DNA of 64,000 bases from Psammoneis japonica (Eukaryota): positions 310,001 to 374,000 of the forward strand of contig QPGO01000021.1 of NCBI GenBank assembly GCA_008632985.1. Direction: 5' to 3'. Numbering within the stretch: position 1 is the stretch's first letter; each line of letters begins with the position of its first letter. The translations under genes were made by a program, and so were the position numbers. Below, in pieces: positions 1 to 63,113 of the stretch. The notes beneath the pieces are model-generated. The model had not been told where the DNA came from. It saw nothing but the letters and a program-made list of their open reading frames with translations, and searched no databases.

Positions 1-665
1 GCTCGAACAATCGGGAGCACTCCTGGCTGAGGGGAACGCACTTCCCCGCATCTGTCGCGAGGTGCAGATGCTCATGGGAGTCACCTGCGCAGGCTCACGC
101 AAGGTGGTGCACCCCGGGTGCCCGACTACACCGCTGTGGCGCACAAGGTGCTCCACGGACAATTCTCCTTGCTGGCACAGTTGCCACGCCATTTGCTTGG
201 CCAACCAGAGCAGACAACCAATTCCCAGGCGAGCTCGACCAGCGCCAGCAACAGTGGCACCCCTTCCGCGGCTGCCGCCGCTGCGGGACGTCGCGACCCG
301 GGCACGGCCGTTGCGAATCCCAACCCGGTGCGGTCCTGGCTGACGGCCTTTGCACAAGCCGGGATCCGCCTAGCTACGGTCCGACGTTTCGCACCCCGAA
401 CCACGGATTCAAGTGGCACCGCATGTGAAGTGTGCCTTTCCTGTCACCAAAAGGAACGTGCTTCGCCAACTGTGAGCGCAGCAACACGCACCGGAACCTC
501 TCGCCACGAGAGAGGACGGCTGTGAGCGCGTTCGTTCGGGACCACGTGTCCAATCCCCAAGAAGGTGGCGCCCCAGCTCCGGCACCCGCGCCGGCACCGG
601 CGGCCTCCACCTGAGGACGGGGGCCAGTCAGCCCTAAAGCTGGCCTGCAGCCCTCCTCTACCTGC

Positions 666-2560
666 TTGCCAGATCCGCACCAGCAGCATCCACGCAGCAA
701 CGAACTAGGTAAGTTAGCAGAGGACCATGCCAAACTCTTACAAACTTTAGGCTGGAGCCAGTTCGTTGCACACCTGCGCAGGGAGCCGTGTCTGGTCGAG
801 AATGTTCGGCAGCCACCCCACCCAGCTGCCGAGTTACTTTCTAAACTCCGCAACGACGGAGCACCGGTCCAGTTTTCAACGGAAGACTGGTCCCCTCACC
901 GGGTCCGGATGGCGACCGACCGCGGGAGCCATCCGTCCACTCACGAGTGTCTGGGCTTCCTCGAATCGGACATGGTGGACATGATCCAGAAACGACACTG
1001 GACAGTCCTGCCGCACCGCGAAGCCTGCAAGCTCCCCCACCTGCGTGTCTCACCGATGGGCGTGGTGCCGCAACGCGACCGCCGCCCGCGCACCATCGTT
1101 GATTACAGCCATTACGGTCTCAACGACGAGACTGTCAAGCACGCCCCTCCAGAAGCCATGCAATTCGGTCGAGCTCTCGACAGGTTCTTGTGCAACATCT
1201 TCCGTGCAGACCCGAAGCACGGCCCGGCACACATGCTCAAGCTTGACCTTTCCGATGGGTTCTGTCGCGTCGGGCTGCGACCCCAGGACATGCCCAAGCT
1301 CGGGGTGGCCTTCCCAGCAGGCCCAGGGGAGGAACCGCTGACAGCGCTGCCTCTCGTCCTACCCATGGGCTGGACCGAGAGTCCGCCATTCTTTTGTGTG
1401 GGCACCGAGACGGTGATTGACTTGGCGAACAGCCACTCGCCCACAGCTTGGGACCCTCCGGTTCATCCCCTAGAACAGGCAGCGGCCACTCCAGCACCTC
1501 ACGACAACACCTTGCGCATCGACGTGCCGCCGCCTTCCAGTGCAGCTCCGACTAGCCGCGCATCACGCCTTCCTCCTCCCGCCGCTCTCCATCGCAGACC
1601 CCGACGGGGCTCTCAGCCACTGAAACTTCGATGTCTACGTCGATGATGAAACATGCGCCGCACAAGGAACGAAGGCTCGTCTCAACAAGCTACGTCGACG
1701 CCTCTTGCACATCAACGATCAAGTCTTCCGTCCCAACACACCGTCTGACGAGCACTGGCGGCGTGAAACCATCTCCCTCAAGAAACTCCTCAAAGGAGAC
1801 GCGTCGTGGTCGACAGTGAAGGTCATTTTGGGGTGGCTCATAGACACACTAGCCGGGACTGTCGAGTTGCCCCCGCATCATCGACAACGCCTCCTTGACA
1901 TTCTGGCTGACACCATCCCTCGCCGCCACATGTCCAACAAACAATGCTGCAAACTTCTCGACAAAGTCCGCAGCATGTTGTTGGCGGTGTCCGGTGGTGC
2001 GGGCCTTCTCTCCAACCTCCAGCACTCTCTTGCCACCTCCAGTGACTCCCGCACTCGCATTGACCGCCACACGCGCTGCCAGCTCCAAGATTTGCACACC
2101 TTGGCCATGGACATTGTCTCGCGTCCTGCTCGGCTGGCTGAACTTTTCCCTGCTGCCGACGGGCACTTCTGCGGGGCGTGCGACGCAGCCAAACCTGGGT
2201 TTGGCGGCGTCCCATTGCCTGGCCCTCAAGACACTTCCCTCCTGCCAACCTGGCAAGTTCCGCTGCCTCTAGACCTGCAAGCCGCTGTTGTTTTGGACGA
2301 CAACCCTGCAGGCACTGTGACAAACTCCGACCTCGAGCTAGCCGGCCGTTGTCGGCATCGCCGTCGACGTCAGGGAACGCACCGTCCACACGTGCTGCGA
2401 CAACACGCCTGCCATTTCCCGGCGCGGAAAAGGCTCTGTCACAACCGACGGCCCCGGCGCCGACACACTGCGGACGGGGAGCCTACAACAACGGCAGCTC
2501 CGACACGTCTCCCGCTTCCATTACATTCCTGGCCCAGCCAATCTCCTCGCAGACACATGC
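666..2560 (+). pseudogene. RT-RNase H of the YR retrotransposon, frameshifted
   Basis: SPMGVVPQRDRRPRTIVDYS, KLDLSDGF(C)RV, LPMGWTESPPFFC. FDVYVDD (gtctacgtcgatgat, ~1633-1647) lies in a different frame. RNase H motifs GACDAAKPGFGG and TNSDLELAG. Confidence 0.85.
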
Positions 2561-2629
2561 TCCCGCAAATTTTCCACGCCGTCTCACCTTCTTGCTGCGC
2601 TTGCTCGCCTTGCCCCACAGACGAAACCT

Positions 2630-3804
2630 TGGCGAATGCTGCACCTGCCGCCAGACATCGTTTCTTCACCAATCTCCACCTTGCGACGGCAAAAGCCCAC
2701 GAAGCTGTCACTGGCGAGCGCGCCCGTGCCACGGACACCGTCTGGGCCAAGTGTTGGCTGCCTTTCCCATCCGACATCGGAGTCAAAGACCCTCTCCTCA
2801 CCGGTGTCCAAGACAAAATCCCGATGCTCCGAGTCTTTGCCTGTCACCTTGGGGATGGACGCCTCAGCCGCAGCGGTGACCCAATCTCAGCTCCGCACGT
2901 TCGTGACGAAGTCCTTCACATCGCGAAGACGTTCACCGAACTGGGGGCCCCGGACCCGCGGCTAACGCCACACGGCACTGTGGATCCTCGCCTTGCTCGC
3001 CTTTACAGTGCGCACTCCAAAGACGATCCGCCGCCAAACCGCGTCAAGCCTCTTCCAATCCAAATCGTGCACCACGCACAAGCCCTTGTCGATGAATCTT
3101 CCGCCCTCGACAACGCTGTCATCGACATGTCCTGGATCGGCCTTTTCTACCTTCTGCGACCGGGGGAGCATTGCAAGACCAAAGACAATGACCCTTTGGT
3201 TTTGAAAGACATCAAACTGCTCGTCGGACAACGTGCACTAGACCACTTGACCTGCCCCCTGCAACAGCTGTTCCTCGCGACACACAGTGGCATTGCGTTT
3301 GACACTCAAAAGAATCGAGAACGCGGCGAAACGGCAGGTCATGCTAGAAGCTCTCACTCCAAGGCATGCCCGGTCCTCGCCATTGCCCGCCGTGTGCATT
3401 GCCTGCGTTCCAACGGCGCCAACGCTAACACCCCCCTGTGTGCTGTACGCCTCGGCACGCGGTGGGGTCATGTCACGAGCCGTGCCATCACCAAAATGCT
3501 CCAAGTGTCAGCTGCCGCCTTGCCACATTTAGGATTCCTGCCGAAAGATGTCACAGCCCGCAGCCTCCGCGCCGGTGGCGCCATGGCCCTGCTGTGCGCC
3601 AAGGTGGACACCGACATCATCCGTCTCGTCGGCCGCTGGAAATCCGATGCTGTGTTTCGATGTCTTCACGCCCAAGCGTTGCCATTGACAGCAGGACTGT
3701 CTACGAAAATCCTGAACTGCGGAAATTTCACGCTGCTCCCAGGGTCCGATGTCCCTCCCATTGCGCAAAACATCATCAATCAAGCCAACGCACCCGCCAA
3801 TTGA
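2630..3804 (+). pseudogene. Tyrosine recombinase of the YR retrotransposon, catalytic Tyr replaced by Cys
   Basis: FYLLRPGE, RSLRAGGA, GRWKSDAVFR-C-LH. The expected catalytic Y codon is tgt at 3661-3663. Start approximate. Confidence 0.85.
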
Positions 3805-3883
3805 CGCGTCCACGCCTTCACCCACCCTCAGCTCTGCTTCTGACCCATCCCCTTTTTCCTTCTCGGCCCTCCAAGAGTGGCGG

Positions 3884-4306
3884 ATCGGAGGCGGTCTCGG
3901 TTGCTGGTGAGCCCAAAGAGGGCAAGAAACCCTGGCAAAGCGCTGACACCACCAACCACCGCCTCCTGACTGTGGTGGGACGCACCCCCCAGCAGCGTTG
4001 GTGGCGAACAGCCACTTCAGCAGTGCAGGGGGAAGGACAGACGCATCCACCCCCCAACGCACGCAGCCTTGAACGACCTGAATGCCAGCGGCATTCTTTG
4101 CAACTCATCGCCGCCTGCCGAGGCCGCAGCAGTGGTTGTAAACTTTTTGACCCTCCACTCCCGCCCAGCCGCCTCATCGGAGGCGGTCTCGGTTGCTGGC
4201 GAGCCTGAAGAGGGCAAGAAACCCCAGCAAAGCGCTGACACCACCAACCACCGCCTCCCAACTGTGGTGGGACGCACCCCCCAGCAGCGTTGGTGGCGAA
4301 CAGCCA
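3884..4306 (+). repeat. Split direct repeats B1 (3884-4014) and B2 (4176-4306), 131 bp each
   Basis: Direct alignment. Copies differ only at TG/CG, CA/TG, TG/CA and TG/CA dinucleotides. Confidence 0.95.
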
Positions 4307-5224
4307 TTCTCGAATGCTGGTGTGTTTTCTACGGTCTCTGCGTGCGCGAAGCTCGAATTTCGTGCCCGAAGCAACAATCACCGTTCGGGCACGTGAATCG
4401 CGCAATTGTTCAGCAATTCGTAGCATGTACATCTTCTCTTGCATAAAGACATTCCCTTTTTTTTAACCGTTTCCTCCCGAGTGACTACAAATGACTACAT
4501 TTTGTATTTAATTTTTACATTTTACGTATACAAAGCATCTAGTCATTATTCAAAGATATATTTCTTAGATGAACAATTTCGTATTGAAGCATGTCCAAAT
4601 TAAATACGAAACGATGGTGACTATTGTAGGGCGGTAGACACATCAGATGTAGATAAGGGGTCATGCCATTAGTGTCGAACAGTAGCGTTAGGACCTAAAT
4701 GATCCTACGGAATAGCCCATGGCTATGGAAGGCACCTATTTTGACAGAAGTTAAATAGGGGCAAAGTCATCGCTAAAATTGGTCCTCTACGTAGAACTCC
4801 GTATTAGTTTATCTGTCCATCGCCAGTTCGCGCCAACATTTAGGGGAATGAACGAGTAGGCTAGTGTCTGCATCCTAAGTGATCAATCGTCGTAGACGAA
4901 GCAACAATGTCTACTCCACCTGTAGAGCAATAAGAGACAACAACCAAGCACATAACAGCTCGTAGACACAGTCATTGAAGAGACGTACTAATTCAATAGG
5001 AGATTTAGGCGTATATAAAAGCACAAATTTCTTATGTGATTTTATATTTTTATTTCGATTGAATACAAAAAACACGTTCGGGAGGAAACTGTTAAATAAT
5101 TGACCCATAAAATAATATGAAAATGGATGTTATAGTTAATGCAGTCATACGAGTAAGGGGTGGCTGTCGCGCGCAGTTTTCGCGGGCTGTGCGCGTGAGA
5201 TCCGAATCGATTCTGGCGCCGTTG

Positions 5225-6260
5225 TCAGCATGTTGTTAGGTTTTTGTTGTCATCTTGGCGTGGCATCGATGGTCTCTGTGTGCAGCATGTTAGCAATCGT
5301 TCCGTATGAGTGGTCTGGCACGAGTGGGGGTCACTTAGTGTTTGTAAAGGGACAGACCAGCTCCATCCTCCCATTGAGGACGTCTTGAGCTGATCTGGGA
5401 CGAAGGGATGCGTGATCCCCTGAGGCAACGGTGAGTCGCCCGCACCAAAGTGACACTCATTCTCACGTTAATGTAGCTGCATGCCTCTGAGTGTGGCTTT
5501 TGCCATTTCTCAGCTGGTTTTGCAGAGATTCTGCGCAGCGCTGCTTTGGCTTCCTTGCCAAACAGTCCGTCGCATGATGCGACGAAGGGAGTGAAGTGAC
5601 GTCGTTGCTCAAGGCAGGGCTTGAGGTGCTTGCACTTTTCCTCTTGTTCGTGTTGTTCCAGAACTTCTTCCGGTGTCTTGGACAGGTGTGACTTCGCGTC
5701 CGTGTCCGGAGTGTGAACATCCGTGACGGTGTCTGTCCTTTTGTCCCAAAATCCTTTGGATGAAAGATCTCTGCGGTCGCCATCCTTGGACATGTTGGAG
5801 TTTGTGTTGCCTTGGGAGTTGTTGGAGGAGCCTGGGCTTCCTGAGATGCGACCAATGGGGTTAATGAGGGGTTCATCGCGTGCGCAGGAGGGCTTGAAGG
5901 CCGCTCCAGTTGGGCCACCGAGGTCATCACACACATCGTCGTGTCGTGAGATGACTGGGCCGCCCTTTTTGCACTGCAGGGCATGGGCGATGGAGAATTT
6001 GCAGGCGCATCCATCGCAGTGCTCCGGGAGGTTGGGGGAGTGCAGCCACATCGCAGACAAAGCGCGCCACGGAATTCCAGACAAGAGAGTTCTGTGCCGT
6101 TTATGATCGATGGGTGCACCGACAGCCATGCTCCAGTGCTGGTGCCACGCTTGACAGCTCTGGCTTTTAGGTCGGTTAGAGTCCGGAGGATTGTCTTGAG
6201 TTTCTCCTCGTGCGTCTTGGCTTTCCTGTTTCCTTTGTTTAACGATTTTTTGACATTGAG
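5225..6260 (-). mobile_element. 5'-truncated non-LTR retrotransposon (CRE-like, restriction-like endonuclease C-terminus)
   Basis: PSIINGTELS..EFR.AL.LR, CCHC knuckle CDGC-x-HALQC followed by RHD, DL..KGFW..D, E..K..(H)LKPCLEQRRHFTPFV. Frameshift near 6030, TpA-depleted. Confidence 0.8.
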
Positions 6261-6436
6261 GCAAAAATGACAATATACATTGAAACATATTCAGGAATGA
6301 ATATCAGTGAATGATAGTACGAGGAGGAGTCTGTCTGCAATGTGACAGTGTCTTCCACGCTCTGCACGCTCTGCGCTGCGCGCCCAACGCCCAGTCACAC
6401 AAAGCAACAGCTAGAGAGCAGAAGAAGTGATCGACC

Positions 6437-7849
6437 ATGACGGTCAATGACGACAAAGAGCATACCGTCTTGTTGACGTCCACCAACCATGGTCGCCACA
6501 CATTGACGCTGTCGAAAGGCACAACTTTGAAAGAGTTAAGCGAGACGGCTTGCAAGCTTCTTGGTGGATGCAGTGGTGTGGAGCTGAGCACGGGCTTTCC
6601 TCCGCAGAAATTGCCGCCGAATGATGCTTTGCTTGCACGCTCTGTTATCCCTCATCGTTCACGTGTTCAAGTCATATCAATAAAGAATAATAACAGTGTG
6701 CATTCGAGTAAGAAACGAGGTCGCGAGAAAGAGGACACCACTCCTGAAGAATCCGCGTCAAGAAAGAGATCCGAGGATGAGAAATCTCGTGAGCATTCGA
6801 GCGCTTCAGACGAAGGCATTGTAGATTTGACAGGAGACGACAGTGGCGAGGAAAACGATCTTACCAAAGTTGATGAAGCTCTGGCAAGGCGCTTGCAGCA
6901 GGAAGAAAACGAAGCAGCTCTTGGCGTCGTGCGAGATTCAGCACCACGTTGTGAACAAGCTTCTTCTCGAGTCAAATCATCCGCATTGTCTGATTCACGG
7001 GACCCAACTACAGTCACGGACGACTATTGGGTCTGGCAGGACGGCGCCCAACCATATCTCTGTGAACAAGCGATATACGGCAAGTGGCTTATCTTTTACC
7101 CAGAAGCTCTAACTTTCGAAAAGTGGCAAATGATTGCAAAAGCTGTAGCTTCCGGAGAGCTTCACTCGGCAAAGTGCAAGGTGGCAACCAGATTGAGTGC
7201 CATGACCAAAGGAACCAACCTGACTTTTGTCGTTTGCGTCTATTCGACCCAGGAACGCATGGACGAGGTGGGATTGCGACTCATTGAACTGACACGAAGC
7301 AACAGTTTGCACTACAAGACAAATCAAGCGACGGAAGAAGGACACTACTCGTCATCCATGGGTGGTAGTCATGACGGTGTAGCGGCAAGGAGTCTGTATT
7401 GGAACAAGGGACGGCCGGGGTTCACAAAGATTAGTGGGAATAAAATGAAGCCAGCTCAGTCTCGCTCTCTAGCCAACGCTGCGGCACAAGTTGATGCGCC
7501 CTTGAATCATACTTATGACGACCGCGTCGTGACTGTGGTTGGCCTCAAGTACCACAAGGGCGTCGCTCTCTGTAGCTTACAAGAAGGCAAAACCAAGGTG
7601 CGCCTTTGTCGCGAGGCCAACAATGCGTACGACAGCAGCGCGATTCGCATCGAAATCGATGGTAAAAAGCTGGGCTACGTGGAAAATAAAAAAGGAAAAG
7701 AGGCTGACCTCCTGTCACCGTGGTTGGATCATGATTTGGTTTACATTGAGTCAGCTACAATCAAACACATCATGGGAGAATCTACAGTTACAGTGCAGCT
7801 GACGGGACGGGCTTGTAATGAAGCCAAGAGCATGTTGGCGTGTTTATAA
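6437..7849 (+). CDS. Ubiquitin-like domain + SIM/ubiquitin-binding motif + DUF1917 (Bles03/eIF4E-like) + HIRAN domain protein
   Basis: 470-aa intact ORF. LSTGFPPQKL (OTU1/UBX-like UBL), IVDLT, DEALARRLQQEE, GKWLIF...KVAT...VCVYS, VVGLKYH...LCREANNAYDSSAI...KLGYV. Confidence 0.8.
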   Translation: MTVNDDKEHTVLLTSTNHGRHTLTLSKGTTLKELSETACKLLGGCSGVELSTGFPPQKLPPNDALLARSVIPHRSRVQVISIKNNNSVHSSKKRGREKEDTTPEESASRKRSEDEKSREHSSASDEGIVDLTGDDSGEENDLTKVDEALARRLQQEENEAALGVVRDSAPRCEQASSRVKSSALSDSRDPTTVTDDYWVWQDGAQPYLCEQAIYGKWLIFYPEALTFEKWQMIAKAVASGELHSAKCKVATRLSAMTKGTNLTFVVCVYSTQERMDEVGLRLIELTRSNSLHYKTNQATEEGHYSSSMGGSHDGVAARSLYWNKGRPGFTKISGNKMKPAQSRSLANAAAQVDAPLNHTYDDRVVTVVGLKYHKGVALCSLQEGKTKVRLCREANNAYDSSAIRIEIDGKKLGYVENKKGKEADLLSPWLDHDLVYIESATIKHIMGESTVTVQLTGRACNEAKSMLACL

Positions 7850-9835: not shown

Positions 9836-10464
9836 GGTGGGAAGAAGCGAGCGTGATACCAAAAAAGATACATACTTTGTTTCCACATATACATGTTTCG
9901 TTTCTAGGATAGAAAGGCTAGAAAGACAGGAAAACGGCCCATCACGGGGACCACTGCAGTGTATCTTCAACGTTCGTTTTGCATTTCATCATAAAGGAAC
10001 GACAGAAGACAGCATCATCTTCATCATATAGTTTACATTCGACGTATTTTTTCGCATTAGAGTAGCATAAAACCGTTTTCTTCGTTTTCTTCCTACAGTG
10101 CTGTATCTATTATTCTGTGAGCACTGATGAGCACCGACAACTTTCAATTTTTCGAATTTTTTGAGAGAAAGAGGGAAAATCTTTTATTAGTTTCCTTCGA
10201 ATCTGTATAAATTTATAATGCCAGATTGAAGCTGTTGCATGCATGGCATCGGCATGCGGCATGGAGACACTGGTTTGAGGTTACTGGTTACTGAAGCGCA
10301 TTCCTCGTTGCTTTCTTTATATTATCTCCGCTCTTGCTGTGTCTTTGCAGTTAGCCAACACGTTCAACCCTGAATACGGAAGTCCTGCACCTGAATCTAT
10401 CTCATTTCTACCGTCCCAAGAGAAGGGGGCTACACTACTGCGTTACAACCGATTCACAGAAAAA

Positions 10465-11483
10465 ATGATGGAGCATGTGTTCACTCCCAGCGTCGTCCAA
10501 ACAGGGCTAACGTTTGTCGCGGTTCACTTGTTGCTGTATGGACTGTTTGCCTATGTGCTGCCAAAAGGTCCCTGGACAGATCTTCCCAGCTTTACAGCTC
10601 ATCAAGTCATTAACTTCCCCGTCATGATTTATCTCACATATACGGGTTCGTCAGAATGGTTTAGCATTAGCAATGAAGATGCCAAAGACTCCATGTACAC
10701 GATATTGGGAATTAATGACGTTGGAGCACATTTAGGAGAATTTGCTCTGGGCATGATGCTGTTTTGGGACATTCCAGTTGGACTCATGACGCCCGTTCTG
10801 TGCGACTCGGTAAAGATTGCACACCACGTGGGTGTCGCGTTTATCGGTGGAGTTGTTTCGGGAGCCTTTACACAGGGACGTCCCGTTGGGAGTTATTATG
10901 CACTCTTTTTCCTTGGAGTCATTGAATTTAGCACTATATTTCTAGGTGAGTTTTTGTGAGTGGTGACGCTTTTGAACACTTCGACCTTCATGAAAGCACT
11001 CCGACGTTGAAGCGCACGGGTCCGTACTACTGGCGGCGGACGGTGTGTCATGCGTCTTTCTGTTTTGGATATTGGCCAACGACGTTTCTCACTCGTTGCG
11101 TTATTCTAGTGCTGGTGGACTTGTTTCATCCACACAACAAGGCATGGTTCAATTTTTTAAAGGACGACAGTGGAGGAAAGGAGTTCAAAAAGGCGTTGCG
11201 ATCGTTCAATGAGGCGGTTCGTGTCACGTTTGCAATCGCCTTTTTGATTGTACGAGCTTCGTACTTTCCCTATGTTCAAGTGACGGGTGCCATTCCAGAC
11301 TTTTATCATGTCGGATCACTGCCAGCAGAAGAGCGAGACAATGTACCTCGTGCCGTCTTGTATGGAGTGTGCACGGCCGCCACGTTGTTTTCCATTTTGC
11401 AACTGTATTGGGGCGTCCTTGTCTTGAAGCAAGTACTCAAGGCACTTGGGATTGGTCCATCGAAAAAGAAAAAGACGGCATAG
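10465..11483 (+). CDS. TLC (TRAM/LAG1/CLN8)-domain membrane protein, 2 exons (10465-10945, 11110-11483)
   Basis: WDIP, HH, GVIEFSTIFL|VLVDLFHP, F..VRASYFP. The GT-AG intron 10946-11109 restores colinearity with the paralogue at 26376. Confidence 0.85.
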
Positions 11484-13330: not shown

Positions 13331-13644
13331 CTTTTGACGGAGAGATTTTCTACGTTGATTTATCGGCATTGTCCTGCGAATGCATGCAGTGATCGGGCGC
13401 AAGCACCAGACCATGCCGCACAACATTCATTTTGTGAGCATGTGCGGGACATCGGCCAAAATGTGACGGTTGGAATGATAGGAAGGACACACTAATCTAA
13501 CACACTAAAACAAAACACGCTTGGCGCACTAACGGATAGGTAAATTATATGTTCAAGTCCAAATATGTTCATATTGTGTCGATTACCGGCGGTCAAGTCG
13601 CAACGATCACAAATCAGCATTTTTATCCATTTTTTCTTTCTGCA

Positions 13645-45758: not shown

Positions 45759-45792
<34 letters not shown>

Positions 45793-45980: not shown

Positions 45981-46079
45981 CTAATCTGAATCGTCGGTGC
46001 AGAGCAAAGTGGCCACCGCAGTTCGAAGAGGGGTGGCAGCGCATTGACTTGACGACGAAAAGGACAAGCATTAGCTTGC

Positions 46080-48400: not shown

Positions 48401-48429
48401 AGTGTGAGGCTGATGGTTGTAGGTTACAG

Positions 48430-48656
48430 TGGTTGGCGGCAGAAGTCAAATCAGCAGTAGCCTCGTGTGCTTTCAACAATGATGACGTGGCACGCACTCC
48501 TCGCGCGCGCAGACGCAGAAGTTTGAAGCGGTTTGCGGTTTCCAGATTGACAATGATCATTTGATGTTGATTGTGTTGTTGATAGGCCGCAAGTACTCTG
48601 TTACGGCAAGATCATTCTTCTAGCCTCAGTCCTCAGTCATTGTGCACACTGTCGAG
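48430..48656 (+). repeat. About 230-250 bp dispersed duplication, copy 1
   Basis: Shares tggttggcggcagaagtcaaatcagcagtagcctcgtgtgct...ctagcctcagt..cattgtgc with 54216-54469. Confidence 0.85.
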
Positions 48657-51899: not shown

Positions 51900-54100
51900 C
51901 CAACCGCTCCAAGGGTCAGTCTCACCTCCCAAACAACATCAACGCGCTGCACACATTCTTTTGAAGAGCAACCAAGAGCAACAGCCACAGCAGATGGTTT
52001 TAATGTGCTGTCATCACAGCAAAGGGCACCATCTGCTGCTCTTGTTGCTGAGTCTCATTTTTGCAAAAAGCAACAAGCTGCCTGCGCAACATGAGCAGTG
52101 CTCAGCAGCAGCTGGCAGCAGGCAGGGAGCAGCCCAACAGAGCTCACCTGGACCCAGCGATGTGCCACCACCTCAGGCACCACTGCCTGAGCCCACGGTG
52201 CAAGTGAACCCCCGCCACCTCTGCAAGCAGCCACCCCACACTGCCAGAGCCGCTGGTTGCAGCGCTGGGAGGGGCTTGGGCAGTCTGGCATTTCTCTGCT
52301 TGCTGCTGGAGGAGCACCAGCAAAGACAGCACCCTCAGTCATGAGAAGTTGTCAAGGTTGTCACACCACAGTAGCACAAAGGATCTGCACAACAAGGATT
52401 GCATCATCAAGCCAACATGCAGGATTTCATGGCACCGGCTCAAGAGCAGCTGGGGCATGGCCCAGGGGTGCAGCAAGGGCAAGAGGTGGCAACGTTGAGC
52501 CATGACTTGCCAATGGCCATAACTGTGCACTGCTGCGCCCAAAATGCAGCACAGACAAAGGCCAGGTGCAGGTGTTGCATGCACCAGGTGCCCCCCCCCC
52601 CCCCCCCCACCTGCTGCCTGGCTGTGCCTGGCTGTGCCTGTCACGCACAAAGTCAGCAGCCACAGCCAACGTGTTTGTGGGTGGAGATTTTGCCTTCCAC
52701 CCCAACTGCCAGCATCCACCAGATGAAACCCAAAGATGCCTGGATTGTCCCTGCCCTCCAGCTTTGAGCCACCCACCTGCCCAGCGTGCGCATCATGCCC
52801 TCTGTGGCTGCTTTGCACTGTGGGTGGAGCCAGAAAGCCCTGCCACCCCAGCTTGAGCTTGGGAATGTGCCTTGTTGCATTTACTGGCAAAGCTGTTTCA
52901 GTCCATTGCGGCAGCTTTTGAGCATCTCTGCTCTGGTTTCCTTGCTCTCTTTTGCTCTTTTGAAAAACAGCGAAAAGCTGAAAGCCAGCAACAGCTGCAG
53001 CTGGTGGCTTTGATGCTGCCCCACCCATTCCATCCTCTGGCCTTGCCACTCCTGCTTCTTGGGAGCACACTTGGCTGGCAGCCAGCTCTGTCAGCAAAGT
53101 GTTGCCAAATGGCAATCCGACTTCATTGCGACTGGGTTTTGGCTCTGCCCCAAGCAATCGACCATTTTGCAGTCGACACCACAGTGTGTGGCTTTCTTGA
53201 TGCATGCCCTGTTTCAGCCCATGGCATCTGTTGCTGTTGGCTTGATCTGACACTTGCAGAGCAATGGGCCAGCACAATCTTCCCATTGCTTGAAAGGACA
53301 TCTGTGGCACCAATCTAAGAGGGTGGAGTGCATGACCCCCTGATGCAAAGATGGGTGCTGCCCTCGCTGTCTCATGATGCTCATTTGCATGTGGACAAAA
53401 AAAACTTTTGAGCATGGCTTTTGCCACTCACCTGCCAACAGCACCAGCATCATGTGCAGCATGGCCTTGGCCTTTGGCCTCATTGCCAAGCACAATCCAC
53501 CGCTGCTGCAAAAGGAGAGCGAAATGAGCACAGATTTGCACTTGTGTGCACCTGCCACTCTGATGTCCACCACCATGTCTGCTGTTCTCCCCTGCCAGCA
53601 AGTGCAGAAGACCCCTTTGCATCATGTTGTTCATTCTGCTGATGCACCAGGTGAGTTTGCAAACAAAACAAAGAGCCGAACGGCCCCTCTTCACTCAGCT
53701 GCCACTGAGGGGATTCCAGCACTTGAGAGGAGGAGGACAATCACCAGGTTTGTTGTTTTCTTGTTAAAGAGCACTCAGTCAGTGCCCTGGCTGGCTCCAA
53801 CTTCCATGGTTCAGCCAAGAATGGCTGCTGTGCAGTTTGGTCTTGGGAATGGGGGGCGGGGCAGCAGAAGCAAGGTTTTTTGCAGTGCCGTCCTTTCTTG
53901 CACCACGCTCTTCCTTCATGCCACAACTGTCAACTGTGTGTTTCTCAATCTTCTCACAGCAAGAATCAGGGCACACCCACCTTTCAACTTGTGAGGTCTC
54001 GGAAACGCGCACATGACACCATGAGGAGGTCGTCTCTTCTGGAAGCAGTGGCGGATTGCTGGTGGTTCTGATCAAAGGACACTCAACATTTAAAATTTAG
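51900..54100. other. TpA/CpG-depleted island, unclassified decayed element
   Basis: Near-absence of TA and CG, C18 tract at 52591-52608, preceded by cagttcgcggtt repeats. Confidence 0.5.
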
Positions 54101-54215
54101 ATCAATGTGTGTGTAAAAAGGATGAACTTTGGCAACAGAATTTCAAAAGATGATGCGGCGGCAGCACGCGTTGATTGTTGCTGGTTTGGGGGTTATTGCT
54201 GATGGCATAATTACA

Positions 54216-55461: not shown

Positions 55462-56921
55462 TGTGAAGGCTTTGTTACTTCTTATATACCTTTGTGCCCA
55501 CGAGCCGCCACAAGCATTGGATTTTTGTGGCTGGTCTGCACTCACTGCTCAAGTGGGATATAGTGATTGCCATGGAAACTCAAACAAGCGGCCTGACATC
55601 ACGCTCGTAACGGTATCCAATTTGATTCAAGCGCAGACGGATGGTAAGAAGTAACGAGATTATTCTAGTATGATCTATTGAATCATTGACTTGATCTCTG
55701 CGCGTTGAAACGGTGCTTTCTCTATGCTTTGCCCTTCGTATATCTCGGATGACTTTCGACAGTAGAATCTCTCTGGCTCTATTCTAGATTTGAGGGCATT
55801 GCAATTCTGAAAGTCTTAGAGAATCGTCCACAGTTGCGAGGAAATGGACCCACCAGTAGATTTTACGTCTATCGGATGTCACGTTCGCGGTTCAGCTGTT
55901 TTGCTCTTGTTGTTTGTGGTGGCGGATTGTGAGTTGTGACGAAAGTGGTGGTGGATTTGGTTGAAAGGACAAGACTGAAAGTGAATTTTTGAGAAGGACA
56001 CTCTATTTACCGTACACCGTACACCGGTATGGAGTGGCGCTATTTTCCAAAAGTGCGGTGCGCAGTACTCGTCTACATACGGACAAATAGTACCAGACTC
56101 TACGCACCGAACACAACAAGATTTCACTCATTACGACAACAGCACGGGAAGTCTATCATGTCGGGTATATCGACGTTATTGCGCTTCTTGCGTATAAAAA
56201 ATACATAAATCCACTAATATTACGCATGCGAATTGGATGGGATACAGGATCTTGCAAATCTGGTGAAAAAATCGTCCCCCCGTGCTTCACCGTGTTAAAA
56301 CCCCGTGCTAATCCTCCATAATGAATGAAAATCCAACTTTTCGTCAAAATCTGTTGTCGCGTGCTCACTTCAGTGCTTCATCAATGCGATCGACCGAGAA
56401 AACACAAAATACACCCCAAAAAAAGTGAAAAACAACAGTCCCACCGCGGCCAAAACCTCTACGTGATTTCAGTACCAAGTTGTACGTGCCAAAAACCCTT
56501 CGTCACCAATGGCTCAACCAGCTCCCAAAACAACTCGATCATTGTCATTTGACATTGACATCTCATTTCTTATCATGTCAGTTGTTGTCTCGGTGCATCA
56601 ATGCTCCCAGTCCAAATAAACATCTCTACGAATTTTGTAGTGCATTTTTACGTACGCACACTTTGTGCAGATTGGGCGTGCGCACCGCATTTTTGAAAGT
56701 GCGCCACTCCATTGACATTGTTCAAGGAAGCTGGATAAAAAAGAAAAAAGGATGAACTTGGCGCGCGGATCGCAAAGTTTCAAAACATCGTGCTTGCTGT
56801 CAGCGACCAGCGACCTCACATCATTGAACATGCTGCAGGGCCCATTGTGCCCACCTGGTGGCCCTGCATCCCAGATCATGGAATGGAGCTTGGAGCTTGG
56901 TGACAGCACTACGAATGCGCC

Positions 56922-57940
56922 ATGAGTCTCCTCATAAATCAAAGGCTCCTTCCTTGGAGAGCTTTGCCTCATTCGTTGTGGCACATGACTCATCCCAGGC
57001 GAACCCTCGTTCGCTCCTCATTGTTGCACAATCGCACTCACCAGACAACAGCGTTGGCACGGCGAAATGTCAAAGCCTGCGAGACACCTGAAGATGCAAC
57101 ACTCGTCAATGCTCCCCTCATCAGAGGCCGTGATGATGATGCGCTTTCTCGCTTTCCAAATTTGAAAAGTCCCGGTGGAGTCCTTCGTGGACTCGATCAT
57201 GCTGGAACCCTGACGTTTGCGCTCACGGGAAGCGTCACGGCTGCTCAGTCGGGGCTCGATGTGTTTGGATGCTCCATGGTGGGAATGGTGACTGCCGTTG
57301 GTGGTGGAACCATACGAGACGCCATCTTTTTATGCAAACGACCGTTTTGGACGAGCGAGATGGAATGCATGTGGATGTCAGTGCTGGCAGGGTTCTTGAC
57401 TTTCTTTGCGTGGCCGCGAGTGTTGGACAAAAAGTTGGAGCGACAACAAACGAGATTGCAAACGAACGGAGAATCAGCCTCAACAGCGGAAACATCTTTC
57501 GTGAAAAAGGATCCAGAAGGAAACAACTCTGTTGTTCCTTGTTGTGACGAGCTGGACGCGGCACTTGACACGTTTGATGCAATTGGGCTTTCCGCATTTG
57601 CCATTGTGGCGCCCAAAACGGAGTTCGTGCAGGCATGCCAATCATTGTGTCTTCCATTTGTGGCATGGCTGCTTCCACATTTGGAGGCATGTTGTGGGAT
57701 GTGTTGTGTGGAAGACCGGTCCGAATCATCCATTCCAATGCCGAAACCTGTGCACCAGTTGCCTTTGCAGGAGCCGTGACTTGTTTAATCGCAAAACGGA
57801 TTCGCGCTTCGCCGGGGGCCAGGATTGGCGCAGCATTGGCGGTTTGCATGGGGGGTCATTTCACAGCAATCAAACATGATGTAAGGCTTCATGCTTGGGA
57901 CACAAGGAACGATGGCCTCGGAGTCGCAGTAAGAAAATGA
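56922..57940 (+). pseudogene. TRIC/UPF0126 (YadS-like) membrane transporter, frameshifted
   Basis: LDHAGTLTFALTG, TAVGGGTIRD, FDAIGLSAFAIV|GAQNG, STFGGMLWDVL. One G is missing near 57608. No Tyr in the annotated frames. Confidence 0.8.
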
Positions 57941-58424
57941 CGCCACAACGCTGCGAATGACTGCACTGGACGCTGAGGATGACGAAAGCACAAGCTAAGC
58001 TGCTCGCTGTGGCACTCTTAGATGATTCAATCTGTGCTGTAATCTAAAGTTGGGGTGTGGTTGCACTTGATGTCGCACTTCTGCTGTGCTTGAATTGTGG
58101 ACCAATCACCAGTTAAGTCTTCTTGACTGTTTTCTACAAGATGGAGCAAGTTGTCCAGCAAGCACTGTTGAAATAAAGTGGACCAACTTGTGAGCCATGT
58201 GAAAGTTACATGGATCGTCTGCTGGGATCGAGAACAACTGGTGCAACAGACTGCATCATTTGCAACTGTGAGAAGGCTAGAGAGATCTACAGTCTCCAGA
58301 CAGTCCTTGAATCGATGCATCTCAAGAATGCACTTCAGGAACCATTCGCTGCAGATTGTGTCATAATGTGTGGATGGTTGCTTCGCTGTCACACATGGCC
58401 ACAAGCCAAGCATCAAAGAACAAG

Positions 58425-59514
58425 CTAAAAAAAGAGTCCCTCGTCCCCCATCAAACATGAACACATGAGTTGATTGGTGTCAATGCATTTCATGCAGCAG
58501 ACATTCTCACAAAAGTCACACGCCCTGCAACGAGCAACGCAGTCATTGGTTTTGCAACAAAAGTCATGGCACCCATTGCAGAAGATTCCATCAGCACAGT
58601 TGTCACATTCTGAAAACAAGCAGGAAGAGCATGTCAAGATCTCCATGGAGTCTGGACAAGAACACCGATCTTGGCAGCATTGCAACATGCAAACATCGCA
58701 AATGTGCTTCTCGGGGCAACCATTGCCCACACCACAACAGGCGAGTTTCTTGCATTTCTCGCAGCAAGACAAACTCATCACCCAATGCAGGTGGTCTTTG
58801 GGTGTCGCATGCGCAATGACGCAATCGCAATGCCCACAGCGGGTTTGCTGCAGAACACCTTGGATCTCCAAGGCTTCATGAAACTTGTGATAAAATCGTG
58901 AGATGCCAACATCAAAGTTCCGATGAAATTTGGATGGGAAACGCCTTTGTTTCCGGATCTTGACAAGTGACAGTCCTGGTGAGCCGTCTTGGAGCTCCTC
59001 CGTTGGTGCAATCGGTGGCATGGATGAGAGCAACGGTGAAACGTGTTGGATGTCCAACTCGACAGGACCACATGGCCAAACTGTGTCCTTTTCATTAGGG
59101 AATCCCGACTCGTTCTCAAAGACAAGTCTTGGATCAATCTCTCGCAGCATGCAAGAGCCACAAAGAGGCTCCAATCTGCACCCACGAATGCGGGTGCAGC
59201 CGCTGAGCTTGAGAATGCGACAGCGTTCAAGAGCCTGGCTCTCACAGAAAAGTGCTTTGAGTTGACTGTCTGTGATTCTAGATGCAACAGATGTGCCCAA
59301 CGCACCAAATTCAATCGCACTCCAAAGCCAGGGATGCTCCTCCCTCACACACTTGCTTTTTCAATTGACTGTTGCGTGCACCGATGCAAACAAGCGATGC
59401 GAGATCCAAGCATCCCAGAATTTCGCCAACAGCACTAGATGGCAAATGGAGAGGCGGAATGATTGGCCCTTCAGCAATGCGCCAATGCTTGGCGGCGCTT
59501 CTGGTCTCTGGCAT
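58425..59514 (-). pseudogene. F-box-like/LRR-like Cys-rich protein, copy 1 (frameshift near 59345)
   Basis: Paralogue of 62013-63113 with the same MPETRSAAKH start. LPSSAVGEILGCLD. More TA->TG/CA changes than copy 2. Confidence 0.75.
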
Positions 59515-59749
59515 TGTCCTTGTTTGCTTTTCTTTTCTCTTCCATTTCGCTGTGATGTTGATGCGGTTCAATGTGTGAGCGTGCCGAAACAGCCCGTCGG
59601 AGGCGGCAGTGCTGAAACGTGTGGAATTCTAAAGGATCTTTCGAATCTCGAGCTCGAACTCCTGCCGTCAAAAAAAAAAAAGAACAAAAACGGCATCAAA
59701 AGAAATGCATGCAGAAAAAGCTCCTGTGTTCACAAGCCATGTGCAGGGG

Positions 59750-61820
59750 TCATGAGTCCCGAAAAACAGGGTTTGGGCCGATTTCTGGTGCAAAACTCAC
59801 GTAGAAAATTCGCGTAGAACATCTTGTTCATCGTGCTTTTCCCATGCTTTGTGAAAAACAGGCCACGACCTCAAGGAATCGATTTCAGTCACAACGGTTG
59901 ACACTTTGCGCACTTGCTTTTTGATGACAAACACGACGATGTCCACCGTTCAGCAAAATTCCATCATTGGAAAATGTTTGCCGTGGTGATGCCGTGGTCA
60001 AGTGTTGATCGAATTTCTGAAAATGGAATTTTGAAGTGTTCATGCACAGAATCATGTTGCTTGTGCAACAGTCATCATGCAAAGTGTCAATGGTTTCAGG
60101 GGAAAACGATTCCTTGAGGTGTCGGTGGAGCAGAGAAGCACGGTAGAAGCACGAGAAAAAAATCGGCCCAAACTTGCCCAAACCCTAATTTTTGTAATTT
60201 TTTCTACGTAAAATTTCTACGTGATTTTTGCAACAGTGCACATGGCTCATTGCCAGCCCAGCCATGCCATGGGGTTGGCCGCGCACACTGACCAGTGGGT
60301 GCTCCAGGAAATTTGGCCATGTTGAGTCATTGCATCCTGGCAGAGGCTTTCACATGTGGGGCCTTGGCCCAAGAAGAGGCCTTGCAAGTGTGCTGGGGCT
60401 GCACGCTTGTTCAGTGTTCAGCGGCCAGAGCAGCTGTGCTCTTTTGCAAATGACATGCCCAGAACCACTTGTGCAAAGATGGAGTCAAGTTGCGTTCCAG
60501 CAGGGTGACATTTTCACCCCATGTGCCCATCTTTCAAGAAAGCAAAATTGAGTGCTGCCTTTCTTGTCCAGCCCTTCTTGTGTTTGATCTGTCATTGTGT
60601 CATGTGTGCCACCAACCAAAGTGGCTGTGCCCAGCTGGCAAAAGAAAAAGGCAAGTCCCTGGAAAAGGGAGTGGGAAAGGCAGCAAGCCACCAAGGAGAA
60701 ATGCAGTTTCGTGCACAGGCAGCATGCACCGCACTTTTAAAAACTTCTTGCAAGCTGCCCACTGCTTGACGATTTGTCTGAATGGCAAAGGTGGCAGCCA
60801 GCGGTGGCTGGTGGCCTGATTGATCAAGCCACCATCTTTGAAGTTGGTGGTCAAACCCGTCTCCCAATGTTGTGAGCAAAATTGTTGCTTGCTGCACTGT
60901 GGGCAACTCACTGGGGCCGTTGACAAGATGCAGCAGCCCTTGTTGGGCCAGCTAGAGGCCACTTGGTCAGCGGCGCCATTTGTGTGTGACATTTTGCATT
61001 GTGCCAAGGTGCATGCTGGATTGTCCAAAGCGGTCAAGTTGGGAAAGTTGCAAAACTTGTTCCAGACTTGGGTGTCCACACACTCAAAAAAAGCCCACCA
61101 TTTCAAATCGTGTGCCACAAGACAAGAGATTGATGATTTTTCAATGAGCAATTTGTGGCCGCACTCATGTGCAAATAAAGACTGCGGGGCATTTTTTGAG
61201 CAGTGGGTGATTGGTGTGTGAAGGAATCTTAAAGAAAGAGTCCTGACTCCCCGGTGTTCCACGCTCTCATCCAAGAAGGTCTCGCTGAACGTGGGTGTGT
61301 GCCGCGTTGTTAAACTGCATTTGTGGACCGCTTTGCAGTGACATTTGTCCCACTTGCACACACCTGAGGGCGATTGAATCATCGCTCATGGCACCAAAAC
61401 AAGCACAAAAATCATGCGGGGAGTTCCAAACTTGGCACACCCCAACAAATGGCAAAACCATTGTTTCCAAATGCCCAAACGACAATCTAAAAGTGCAAAA
61501 GAACAACACAAGGGGTTCGAATCATACAACCCCACTGCAACACTGTGGCACACTTAAATTCACACTGCAGCGTCATCAGCGAAAGCACAAGCCCAAGCTT
61601 CTCACTGTGGCGCTCTTGGATGAATCATTTGTGCGGTGATCTGCAGTTGCACGTGACATCGCACTTGTGCCTCTGCATGAATTGTGAACCAACAACCCGT
61701 TCCATTGTCCTCTTTGTGTCTGCTTTCTGGAGAATGCTGGATGCAGCAAGGAGTCTAGCTGACAATGTTGACAAAAAGGGGGCCACTTGTGAGCAATGTG
61801 AAAGTCAGATGGTGCGTCTG
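59750..61820. other. TpA-depleted decayed element between the duplicated F-box-like genes
   Basis: TA-poor and fragmented. Its left part carries inverted motif pairs (59767-59820 vs 60161-60223). Confidence 0.45.
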
Positions 61821-62012
61821 CCAACATCAAGAACAAGAGTTACAAAAGACTGCATTTGCCACTGTGAGATGGCTCTAGAGAGAGTTCCGCCGGTGCAGTC
61901 TCTGCTCTGGATGGTCGTGAATCGATGCAACTCCAGAGTGCAGTTCAGGAACTAATCGCTTCACATTTTGCCCAGTGCAGATGGATGCTGTGCTGTGTCT
62001 GCAAGCCAAGCA

Positions 62013-63113
62013 TCAAAGAGCAAACTGCCAATGGTGTCCCTCACCCTCCATCACTCCAAAACACGTGTTTCTACGGGGATCCAGAGTGCACTTCCTGCAG
62101 CAGGCACACTTGCAAGAGTCGCACGCGCTGCATCCAGCAGAGCAGTCATTGGTTGCACAACAAAAACCACCGCACCCAACACAAATGACTCCATCAAAAC
62201 AGCTTTGACATTGTGACAACGAGCAGGACGAGCACAGGAAGATCACAGTGGAGTCTTGACAAGAATTCCGATCTTGGCAACATTGCAGCATGCAGACATC
62301 GCAAATGCCCTTCTGAGGGCAACCATCACTCATGCCGCAGCAGGTGAGTTTCTTGCATTTCTCACAGTGAGACAAACTCATCACCCAATGCAGATCATCT
62401 TCGGGTGTCGCATGCGCAATGGCGCATTCGCAATGCCCACAGCGGGTTTGCTGAACATCGGCCTGGGTTTTGAGAGCTCCATGAAACTTGCGATAAAATT
62501 GTGAGATACGGAAGTCAAAATTCCGATAAAAATCGGTTGAATAAGACCGTTGTTTCCGAATCTTGACAAGCGAGAGTCCCAGTGAACCGTCCTGCAGATC
62601 GTTCGTTGGTGTAATCGGTGGCATGGACGAGAGCAACGGCAAAACGTATTGGACATCCAACTCGACAGGACCACATGGCCAAACTGTGTCCTTTTCATAA
62701 GGGAATCCCGATTCGTTTTCAAAGACAAGTCTTAGATCAATCTCCCGTAGCATACACGAGCCGCGAAGAGGCTCCAATCCGTACCCACGTATGCGGGTGC
62801 AGCCGTTGAGCTTGAGAATGCGACAGCGTTCAAGAGCTTGACTTTTGCAGAACAACGCTTCAAGTTGACAGTCTGAGATGCTTGACGCAACAGACATGCC
62901 TACCGTACCAAAATCAATGGTACTCCAAAGCCAGGGATGTTCCTCAAAAACTTGCTTTTTCAATTGACTGTTGCATGCTCCGACGCAAACTAGCGATGCG
63001 AGATCCAAGCATTCCAAAATTTCGCCAACAGCACTCGACGGCAAATGGAGAGGCGGAATGATTGGCCCTTCAGCAATGCGCCGATGCTTGGCGGCGCTTC
63101 TGGTCTCTGGCAT
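62013..63113 (-). CDS. F-box-like/LRR-like Cys-rich protein, copy 2 (3' part TpA-eroded, true stop uncertain)
   Basis: LPSSAVGEILECLD...LWSTIDF, ILKLNGCTRIRGYGLEPLRGS, CxxC-rich C-terminus. Confidence 0.7.
   Translation of the reverse strand: MPETRSAAKHRRIAEGPIIPPLHLPSSAVGEILECLDLASLVCVGACNSQLKKQVFEEHPWLWSTIDFGTVGMSVASSISDCQLEALFCKSQALERCRILKLNGCTRIRGYGLEPLRGSCMLREIDLRLVFENESGFPYEKDTVWPCGPVELDVQYVLPLLSSMPPITPTNDLQDGSLGLSLVKIRKQRSYSTDFYRNFDFRISQFYRKFHGALKTQADVQQTRCGHCECAIAHATPEDDLHWVMSLSHCEKCKKLTCCGMSDGCPQKGICDVCMLQCCQDRNSCQDSTVIFLCSSCSLSQCQSCFDGVICVGCGGFCCATNDCSAGCSACDSCKCACCRKCTLDPRRNTCFGVMEGEGHHWQFAL

Follow-up and report, generated by a model that had tools for sequence, protein, structure and literature searches.

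Background

Among the known systems of directed hypermutation, fungal repeat-induced point mutation (RIP) converts C to T mainly at CpA, thereby creating TpA, and depends on homology. The APOBEC3 and ADAR enzymes act on single-stranded complementary DNA (cDNA) or RNA and leave one-strand signatures that are fixed at insertion, with ADAR preferring a U 5' of the edited adenine. Hypermutation specific for TpA has been documented so far once, in the chlorarachniophyte Bigelowiella natans. In the accessible part of that 2026 preprint, TpA hypermutation of integrated viral DNA is described from mutation-accumulation lines, in which two integrated viral regions mutate ~1000-fold faster than the remaining genome (Mettrop et al., bioRxiv 10.64898/2026.01.13.699255). 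De novo changes in the hypermutable regions number 231, of which 230 are A>G or T>C and are stated to fall on TpA; reverse transcriptase (RT) and DDE domains are enriched in the TpA-poor coding sequences, and an adenine deaminase resembling ADAT2 is put forward as the agent (10.64898/2026.01.13.699255). None of the words 'diatom', 'trinucleotide', 'flanking' and 'context' appears in the main text of the preprint. Here we present a stretch of 64,000 nucleotides from the diatom Psammoneis japonica (assembly GCA_008632985.1, contig QPGO01000021.1, positions 310,001 to 374,000 of the forward strand; hereafter the window), in which discrete blocks, including a copia-type long terminal repeat (LTR) retrotransposon, are depleted of the dinucleotide TA and enriched in TG and CA. 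We put at roughly 0.7 the probability that these blocks record TpA-specific hypermutation of discrete, transcriptionally inert stretches of the diatom nuclear genome, a process of the B. natans kind that is presumably carried out by an adenine deaminase.

A preliminary description of the window had proposed a repeat-directed TpA to TpG/CpA hypermutation system running in the reverse direction of RIP, and knew of no account of it in diatoms. What survives of this proposal is a DNA-level process that strikes TpA on both strands in particular regions; its targeting by repetition is not supported. Full-text literature searches likewise returned no report of TpA hypermutation in diatoms or stramenopiles, but the same signature has been shown in B. 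natans, according to the accessible part of the preprint (10.64898/2026.01.13.699255). The diatom case is a further instance of a process described only in 2026.

Results

TA loss is confined to discrete blocks with sharp borders

TA, CG and TG/CA were counted in a 400-bp sliding count over the whole window and expressed as observed/expected ratios (o/e). Taken together, the window has a TA o/e of 0.33 and a TG/CA o/e of 1.42. The low-TA blocks, whose positions agree to within a few hundred bases with those listed in the preliminary description, sum to ~38.8 kb (Table 1) and have TA o/e values of 0.05-0.26, as against 0.42-1.05 in the adjoining genes and spacers. Pooled heavy zones of 25.1 kb hold 109 TAs, as against 1015 in 23.1 kb of pooled background. 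At 30401-42600 there are 44 TAs, with ~536 expected from the TA-normal density (Poisson p 1e-167). The depletion is thereby confirmed as real and far past chance.

The intervening genes had been described as normal, and they are: all 11 TA-normal open reading frames (ORFs) have a TA o/e of 0.42-0.73, and TAs at third-codon and cross-codon positions are abundant in host ORFs. The non-coding spacers adjoining these ORFs also lie at 0.51-1.05 in 16 of 16 cases; thus, neutral DNA beside genes is not depleted. The borders of the blocks are sharp to ~100 bp. At the left border of the 12.2 kb block, between 30336 and 30457, TAs occur every 5-40 bp on the outer side and once per 100-350 bp thereafter. 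Further abrupt steps are seen at 51886/52001, at 42473-42620 and at 11778/11855, the last pair of TAs enclosing the left border of the block at 11801-13400.

AA/TT o/e is not reduced in the TA-poor kilobases. Per kb and with strands pooled, the heavy zones differ from the background by -39.6 for TA, -28.9 for CG, +31.6 for TG and +31.6 for CA, so that the losses of TA and CG jointly account for the gain of TG/CA. The stop words are altered in the same way: the six frames of 30401-42600 contain 670 TGA, 41 TAA and 27 TAG, and those of a normal stretch 145, 84 and 80, respectively. Since TAA and TAG are gone, long overlapping ORFs appear in several frames of the depleted blocks. These ORFs would strike a gene caller as protein-like and are recognised neither by a family nor in the Atlas.

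A copia retrotransposon has lost TA in place

The direction of the change was read from the copia element, the interior of which has a TA o/e of 0.27 and a CG o/e of 0.93. Its reading frame of 1825 aa has more than 1500 relatives of ~1900 aa. We aligned the protein with 60 of 76 full-length relatives, scoring a Tyr column as conserved if at least 80% of them carry Tyr, and compared the DNA with 79 related loci taken from metagenomes and, threaded by codon, with 38 relatives. All 79 loci have a TA o/e of at least 0.41 (range 0.41-1.02, median 0.72). Conserved Tyr columns number 39, and in the window copy 16 of these are kept, with 13 Cys, 6 His, 2 Phe, 1 Arg and 1 Trp in the remainder, as against 667 of 730 other conserved columns kept (Fisher p 7e-14). 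Tyr makes up 1.37% of the protein, the lowest share among 121 family members, the other 120 standing at 3.0-5.0%. All seven peptide strings quoted in the preliminary description, DGFCRV and DAKSHL included, are present in the window. Its reading of them as altered Tyr codons is borne out for DIGNACLE, KALHGL, TATCGSE and TLRCLG, for which the column holds Tyr in 60 of 60 homologues, but VCDVKH is ambiguous, its column holding Phe in 43 of the 60 homologues and Tyr in the other 17.

In each of the 38 codon-threaded comparisons, TA in the relative faces TG or CA in the window copy at 50-152 sites, as against 3-16 sites with the opposite arrangement. For the closest relative (L001) the figures are 109 and 3, and the corresponding figures for CG are 99 and 74. 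Defining an ancestral-TA site as one with TA in at least 60% of the relatives yields 53 sites, at which the window copy has TA 19, TG 15, CA 13 and other dinucleotides 6 times; TG or CA accordingly makes up 28 of the 34 changed sites. Dinucleotides other than TA are kept at 61-95%. With both strands pooled, A>G changes by 5' neighbour amount to 25/86 after T, 11/120 after C, 6/115 after A and 4/191 after G, and C>T changes to 0/78 at CpG and 0/120 at CpA. The polarised spectrum, a check that the preliminary description had suggested, thus has its excess at TpA, in the direction TA to TG/CA. That description had also allowed that the family consensus might itself be TA-free, with Cys or His at these positions. 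As judged from the alignments the consensus is TA-normal and Tyr-bearing, and the window copy has been driven from TA to TG/CA with no accompanying CpG decay.

The two LTRs differ by 13 mismatches in 274 aligned positions. Ten of these fall at 7 TA-derived sites, comprising 3 double differences with CA facing TG and 4 sites with TA facing TG or CA; of the remainder, 1 is at CG and 2 are elsewhere. As LTRs are identical at insertion and these now differ mostly at TA-derived sites, the change took place in the chromosome. If the 5 shared TAs are included, there are 10 changes in 24 TA site-copies versus ~2 in 480 others. The per-site rate at TA is then about 100-fold that elsewhere, as estimated indirectly from the small numbers that a pair of LTRs affords. 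The element is young (~1% non-TA LTR divergence), yet ~60% of its conserved TA sites are gone.

Both strands are struck, and the neighbouring base probably matters

In all six heavy zones the order of TG and CA along the sequence is random (runs-test z -1.6 to +0.6), and no strand-coordinated runs of TG or CA were found in these zones. The random order implies that the strands are struck independently, without long single-strand tracts. The claim that both strands are hit is upheld by this result and by the similar numbers of TG and CA at the ancestral-TA sites of the copia element.

The surviving TAs are mostly YTAR, and the ten strand-symmetric NTAN classes extend from ATAT, the most depleted, to TTAA (Table 2). 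An additive per-strand model, in which the rate of adenine loss on each strand depends on the 3' neighbour, fits these counts (deviance 7.0, 6 degrees of freedom (df), p 0.32) with exponents of 0.32 for A, 0.82 for G, 1.77 for C and 2.43 for T, and a single loss rate for all contexts is rejected (likelihood ratio 110, df 3). From this we infer a target of 5'-TAY, in the order T > C > G > A, or of 5'-RTA if the damaged base is thymine. In the unsaturated copia element, TA to CA changes occurred at 10 of 27 R-TA and 3 of 26 Y-TA sites (p 0.054), which leans weakly towards TAY.

Table 2. TA tetranucleotide classes in heavy zones and background
Class	Zone	Background
ATAT	0	77
ATAC/GTAT	3	145
ATAG/CTAT	3	110
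GTAC	3	84
ATAA/TTAT	13	153
GTAA/TTAC	13	138
CTAC/GTAG	16	145
CTAG	8	51
CTAA/TTAG	30	77
TTAA	20	35

TA is palindromic, and T to C on one strand is indistinguishable from A to G on the other. The lesion might accordingly lie in the thymine of 5'-(R)TA: in silent chromatin a TET/JBP-type enzyme, for instance, could oxidise it to 5-hydroxymethyl- or 5-formyl-uracil, and the modified base would mispair with G and yield T to C. The T of TpA is the favoured position of base J and of the 5-hydroxymethyluracil of dinoflagellates, and 5-formyluracil causes mutations in the direction A:T to G:C. The Tyr, paralogue, context and copia DNA data would fit equally well with the motif read as R-T-A. We nevertheless consider a thymine lesion improbable: there is no sign here of such a modification or enzyme in diatoms, and the authors of the B. 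natans study favour adenine deamination, likewise unproven, in the accessible part of their preprint (bioRxiv 10.64898/2026.01.13.699255).

Error-prone repair of the Pol-eta type, with WA to WG changes, had been named among the candidates. It is disfavoured, A>G at ApA (6/115) being set against that at TpA (25/86), with ApA unaffected and AA/TT o/e not lowered.

Depletion does not follow duplication

Repetition was judged from within the window and from contig k-mer depth. The depleted domain at 56.7-62.5 kb holds the Cys-rich paralogue a and the left part of paralogue b. The two paralogues are 82% identical and share TA at 2 sites only. TG or CA in a faces TA in b at 15 sites, the reverse is seen at 6, and TG faces CA at 18, a site matrix from which it follows that both copies lost TA independently, after duplication. 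The unique DNA between a and b is also depleted, and TA density becomes normal between 62072 and 62494, within b.

The borders of this domain therefore differ from those of the duplication (57983-59655/61580-63275), the right part of copy b being spared from ~62.5 kb. The 12.2 kb block has a k-mer depth of ~88, the same as that of the flanking gene, and so stands at the contig depth of a single-copy neighbour. Purine/pyrimidine (RY)-coded self-comparison of the window gave only the seven pairs already given by blastn, and hence no hidden repeats. A nucleocytoplasmic large DNA virus (NCLDV) region hit in B. natans is also reported as single copy in the accessible part of the preprint (bioRxiv 10.64898/2026.01.13.699255). 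All this makes it doubtful that repetition is the trigger, with duplicated DNA recognised by homology in a RIP-like manner and then mutated at TA, even though transposable elements (TEs) are inherently multi-copy, one duplicated gene pair does lie inside a depleted domain, and heavily mutated copies would cease to look repeated. The label 'repeat-directed' is not supported and should be dropped unless genome-wide data restore it.

Two further duplicates of the window, the TLC-domain paralogues at 10279-11480 and 26364-27221 (67-70% DNA identity), are both TA-normal; thus, old duplicates in gene territory are not depleted.

The depleted domain at 56.7-62.5 kb also contains a target of a different kind. 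The ORF at 56904-57776 has relatives in Chaetoceros, Skeletonema, Mediolabrus and Ditylum, keeps 0 of 4 conserved Tyr (2 Cys, 1 His, 1 Phe), shows I>V three times, and can be aligned with its relatives only up to about residue 235. We read it as a pseudogene. The affected segments had been taken to be TE-derived and in part duplicated, which is too narrow: besides the copia element and the RT-related element of 1-4.4 kb, this Gly_transporter pseudogene and the ZNFX1-like and CbbX-like remnants considered below were hit.

Bias, artefact and prior composition

An untargeted process would erode TAs that are unselected or unrepaired, through either a TA to TG/CA bias across the whole genome or a lesion whose repair is limited to open, transcribed chromatin. 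The depleted blocks are non-genic and apparently functionless and the genes are under selection, as such a process would have it. We think it quite unlikely all the same, in view of the 16 normal spacers, the plentiful third-codon and cross-codon TAs of host ORFs, the sharpness of the borders and the extent of loss in so young a copia element.

Read data were available as assembled contigs of two runs. Contigs of run X1 (k-mer depth 58-94) match 26.0-31.9 kb with 4 and 31.8-40.4 kb with 1 differing letters; these are single-path contigs of up to 8.6 kb, with a k-mer depth equal to that of the flanking genes. A second X1 contig, over 40505-43099, has 32 differences in 2598 bases (1.2%) and seems to be the second haplotype of a diploid. 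Among the 40 of 93 allelic differences that were listed, 14 are CG to TG/CA or the reverse and 3 involve TA, the latter too few to judge ongoing activity. This pattern is that expected of a methylated region in which TA is exhausted. Contigs of run X2 cover only 26.3-29.9 and 43.1-45.5 kb and leave 30.0-42.7 kb uncovered, and no conclusion was drawn from them. Contigs of both runs omit 315 bases (26684-27000) inside the TLC-domain ORF 26364-27221; the omitted piece ends AC..AT. Possible readings are an allelic deletion and an unusual intron.

These contigs leave very little room for a sequencing or assembly artefact, in which a modified base at heterochromatic TA would be systematically miscalled. 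The only reads do come from a sample possibly behind the assembly, but long single-path contigs at the depth of flanking genes repeat the sequence, and two competing paths would, we infer, be expected if a palindromic site were miscalled on one strand. Moreover, losses are fixed differently between LTRs and between paralogues, and the allelic differences within the zone include ordinary CpG transitions. That the composition pre-dates insertion, the families being intrinsically TA-poor or subject to ADAR-/APOBEC-like editing of RNA or cDNA during retrotransposition, would suit the match of sharp borders to element ends and the passage of retroelements via RNA and single-stranded cDNA, but is already largely refuted by the TA-normal copia loci (79 of 79), the Tyr-normal related proteins (120 of 120), the TA-site differences within the LTR and paralogue pairs, the nearly equal striking of both strands and the hits on non-retro sequences (pseudogene, helicase and AAA remnants).

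CpG decay forms a second layer

The most heavily depleted blocks are also poor in CG (o/e 0.23-0.37), with TG/CA o/e of 1.65-1.82. TA loss alone is seen in the blocks of high GC content, namely 1-4.4 kb, the interior of the copia element and 56.7-58 kb. Neither point is in the preliminary description. As the GC-rich blocks lose TA at a CG o/e of 0.87-1.09, the TA process and CpG decay are separable, and the older blocks show a slower, separate CpG to TpG/CpA decay overlying the TA loss. Several of the metagenome copia loci (L053, L079, L003, L060 and L040) have a CG o/e of 0.10-0.25 with normal TA (0.41-0.57); the copia family in other hosts carries the mark of CpG decay and not that of TA loss.

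Contents of the other blocks

Table 1. Features of the window, with positions in its own coordinates
Feature	Position	Strand	Remarks
Retroelement-like sequence, GC 0.59-0.65	1-4400	+	TA o/e 0.17-0.26, CG o/e 0.87-1.09
ORFs of the 1-4.4 kb element	615-1643 and 1624-3801	+
TA-depleted ORF region (ORF 5338-6303)	5401-6200	-	TA o/e 0.16, CG not depleted
TA- and CG-depleted block	11801-13400		TA o/e 0.08, CG o/e 0.25, TG/CA 1.65
Patchy stretch	15801-26300		TA o/e 0.05-0.52, CG mixed
Older TA/CG-depleted sequence left of copia	15801-18545		16701-18700: TA o/e 0.05, CG o/e 0.31
Copia-type LTR retrotransposon	18546-25344	-	RVT_2 E 1.4e-24; partly hypermutated at TA
Copia LTRs	18546-18821 and 25069-25344		276 bp each; pair 95.3% identical
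Target duplication AAAGG	18541-18545 and 25345-25349		5 bp, perfect
Older depleted sequence resuming right of copia	25345-26300		25201-26300: TA o/e 0.13, CG o/e 0.65
Saturated 12.2 kb block	30401-42600	+	TA o/e 0.05, CG o/e 0.35, TG/CA 1.67
TA- and CG-depleted block	46001-48500		TA o/e 0.07, CG o/e 0.34, TG/CA 1.82
TA- and CG-depleted block	51901-54200		TA o/e 0.08, CG o/e 0.23, TG/CA 1.80
Depleted domain	56701-62500		TA o/e 0.07-0.16, CG mixed
ORF read as host-type Gly_transporter pseudogene	56904-57776	+	Gly_transporter family match
Cys-rich paralogue a	57983-59655		wholly inside depleted domain
Paralogue b	61580-63275		left part only inside depleted domain

The targets seen comprise the copia and RT-related elements, the host-type pseudogene and helicase/AAA remnants, along with four blocks for which Pfam, the Atlas and the search for relatives gave no recognisable content. 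In the element of 1-4.4 kb, ORF 1624-3801 has 119 homologues, some of them with RVT_1; those that are named belong to the diatom genera Fragilaria and Epithemia. A diatom origin of the window is borne out by these and the other named homologues and by the best Atlas cluster, which is commonest in Bacillariophyta. Its Tyr content is 0.41%, versus a homologue median of 1.89%, and at its only 5 Tyr-majority columns 1 is kept, 2 read His, 1 Arg and 1 Phe. The ORF at 5338-6303, which carries the string DAKSHL, has 3 Tyr, 14 Cys and 16 His in 322 aa. No Pfam family was matched in the region 5401-6200, nor in the Pfam search of the block at 11801-13400.

The 12.2 kb block yields matches to the PDB entries of ZNFX1 (9q9z, E 0.002) and CbbX (3zuh, E 3e-5), and in the CbbX alignment three Tyr positions read His, His and Cys. 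Pfam gives only weak, sub-threshold matches to AAA_11, AAA_12 and AAA, and a six-frame read-through with X at stops merely the sub-threshold AAA_12 and AAA. The block holds decayed remnants that resemble, on the one hand, a ZNFX1-like SF1 helicase bearing Cys repeats of the NFX1 type and, on the other, one or more CbbX-like AAA+ ATPases.

Of the 341 aa of the ORF at 46133-47155, 29 are Cys, 27 are His and none is Tyr, and the ORF has just 3 unnamed relatives and no Pfam families; for ORF 52342-53427 the Atlas search gave no usable match. A 71%-identical segment (48424-48658/54211-54471) lies at the right edges of the 46.0-48.5 and 51.9-54.2 kb blocks, which may be copies of one element family with interiors diverged past recognition. 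Local duplications within depleted blocks are seen at 3884-4014/4176-4306 (131 bp) and 17628-17740/17964-18077 (114 bp), each 94.7% identical. Within the depleted 15.8-18.5 kb there is a TA-normal island of ~330 bp (16360-16690, with TA every 5-40 bp). It may have been inserted later, or may represent a protected element. The spacer 45591-46000 has the reverse pattern (TA o/e 1.05, CG o/e 0.27), with simple repeats at 45753-45801. In the host ORF 6431-7846 a Bles03-like region is joined to a HIRAN domain, which is a module for binding the 3' ends of DNA; the ORF has no evident tie to the mutation process.

Discussion

The proposed process

The data show that each TA is converted to TG or CA by an A:T to G:C transition affecting one strand or the other, and that the change took place on chromosomal DNA following insertion or duplication. 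It proceeds to near saturation, turning Tyr codons into Cys or His and removing TAA and TAG stops, in stretches that include an LTR retrotransposon, another retroelement, dead host-gene copies and unidentifiable old sequence. The agent would be a deaminase that turns the adenine of 5'-TA-3' into hypoxanthine, whichever strand of the silenced chromatin carries it, and that favours a pyrimidine 3' of the adenine, in the order given above. Its targeting would probably track the chromatin or silencing state, not sequence repetition, and the process would be of the same kind as that in the B. natans mutation-accumulation lines. The adenine chemistry, the enzyme and the targeting signal are thus put forward as the likeliest source of the footprint. 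A bolder and decidedly more tentative extension is that this is an ancient defence enzyme common to diatoms and chlorarachniophytes, perhaps throughout the stramenopiles, alveolates and Rhizaria (SAR), which edits adenine in 5'-TAY of silenced double-stranded DNA on both strands and is guided by chromatin. Such an editor, of which no counterpart has been described, would be a functional mirror of RIP, and might act on any silenced DNA, including dead host genes, and not on invaders alone.

Several points weigh against the proposed process. All of the evidence is footprint, with no de novo event seen; a thymine lesion yields an identical footprint; and no deaminase domain was found among the window ORFs scanned. 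The polarisation of the copia element rests on relatives with only 49-64% nucleotide identity, and the 3'-neighbour model takes host sequence as a stand-in for the ancestors of the zones. The order given by the model is absent from the 25 polarised sites of the LTR and paralogue pairs, at which the mutated A is followed by C 10, G 8, A 5 and T 2 times, although these sites may be enriched for slow contexts. The loss of TAT (-11.8 per kb) is accompanied by a gain of TGT of only +4.2 per kb; the balance of TAC and TGC does fit. The reads are from one sample, possibly the assembly's own source, and their agreement is not independent proof. Finally, amphioxus BjADAT2, the precedent cited in the B. 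natans preprint, prefers 5'-GAA for adenine, not TA, and favours hairpin or single-stranded DNA, according to the accessible part of its description (PMC10354150).

Implications

A saturated footprint in a diatom would show that the process is not peculiar to one alga. Diatoms are dominant ocean phytoplankton and genetically tractable, and knock-outs and reporter arrays could reveal the enzyme. The window also adds constraints on the mechanism: it works in place and to saturation within borders sharp to ~100 bp, strikes the two strands independently, probably prefers a pyrimidine on the 3' side of the adenine, is independent of CpG decay and hits silenced host-gene copies. If the agent is a natural double-stranded-DNA adenine deaminase, it would be of interest to base-editing research. 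There are practical consequences for annotation as well. The loss of TAA and TAG makes spurious long ORFs in six frames that gene callers may accept, Tyr to Cys/His changes skew homology searches, and the dating of insertions by LTR divergence is badly inflated unless TA sites are masked.

Comparison with known systems

The change proposed here resembles that made by ADAT2/TadA-type deaminases and engineered adenine base editors, in which A to I on DNA is read as A to G. With the decay of 5-methylcytosine (5mC) it has in common the excess of TG/CA, seen in the older blocks. However, 5mC decay cannot remove TA, and the copia element loses TA with its CG retained and with C>T at CpG absent. The preliminary description was right that neither RIP nor 5mC decay can explain the loss of TA.

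APOBEC3 acting on cDNA and ADAR acting on double-stranded RNA are likewise forms of hypermutation aimed at mobile or foreign nucleic acid. In contrast to these, both strands of resident chromosomal DNA are affected in the window, non-retro sequences included, and the probable 3' preference is for a pyrimidine, not G. One-strand editing of RNA or cDNA is contradicted by the balance of the two strands (TG 15, CA 13), by the mismatches between the LTRs and by the hits on sequences that are not retroelements.

Fungal RIP is comparable as a DNA-level transition hypermutation, premeiotic or chromosomal, that inactivates mobile and duplicated DNA, skews dinucleotides and riddles ORFs. Unlike RIP, the process in the diatom destroys TpA and gains G:C. 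RIP itself is rejected here by a 10-fold depletion of TA, by the enrichment of CA/TG and by the absence of C>T at CpA in the copia element (0/120). A homology dependence of the RIP type is also unsupported, the borders of the depleted domain lying off those of the duplication and the window having no hidden repeats.

The closest likeness is to B. natans, as described in the accessible part of the preprint (10.64898/2026.01.13.699255): exclusively TpA to TpG/CpA transitions on both strands, in discrete regions with host genes spared; tracts poor in TpA and rich in CpA+TpG, among the contents of which are sequences with RT or DDE domains and many ORFs that resist annotation; and the possibility of a single-copy target. 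The differences are those of host, target and degree. B. natans is a chlorarachniophyte of the Rhizaria and P. japonica a diatom of the Stramenopila, and the events seen live in the former are present in the latter as footprint only. The targets in the window are an LTR retrotransposon, a second retroelement and putative host-gene pseudogenes, with no viral insert recognised, in contrast to the viral regions of B. natans. The depletion is much deeper, with a TA o/e of 0.05 as against a Rho of 0.45 in the NCLDV region (10.64898/2026.01.13.699255). Further differences are the CpG decay that is overlaid on the TA loss in the diatom and the probable TAY 3'-neighbour preference.

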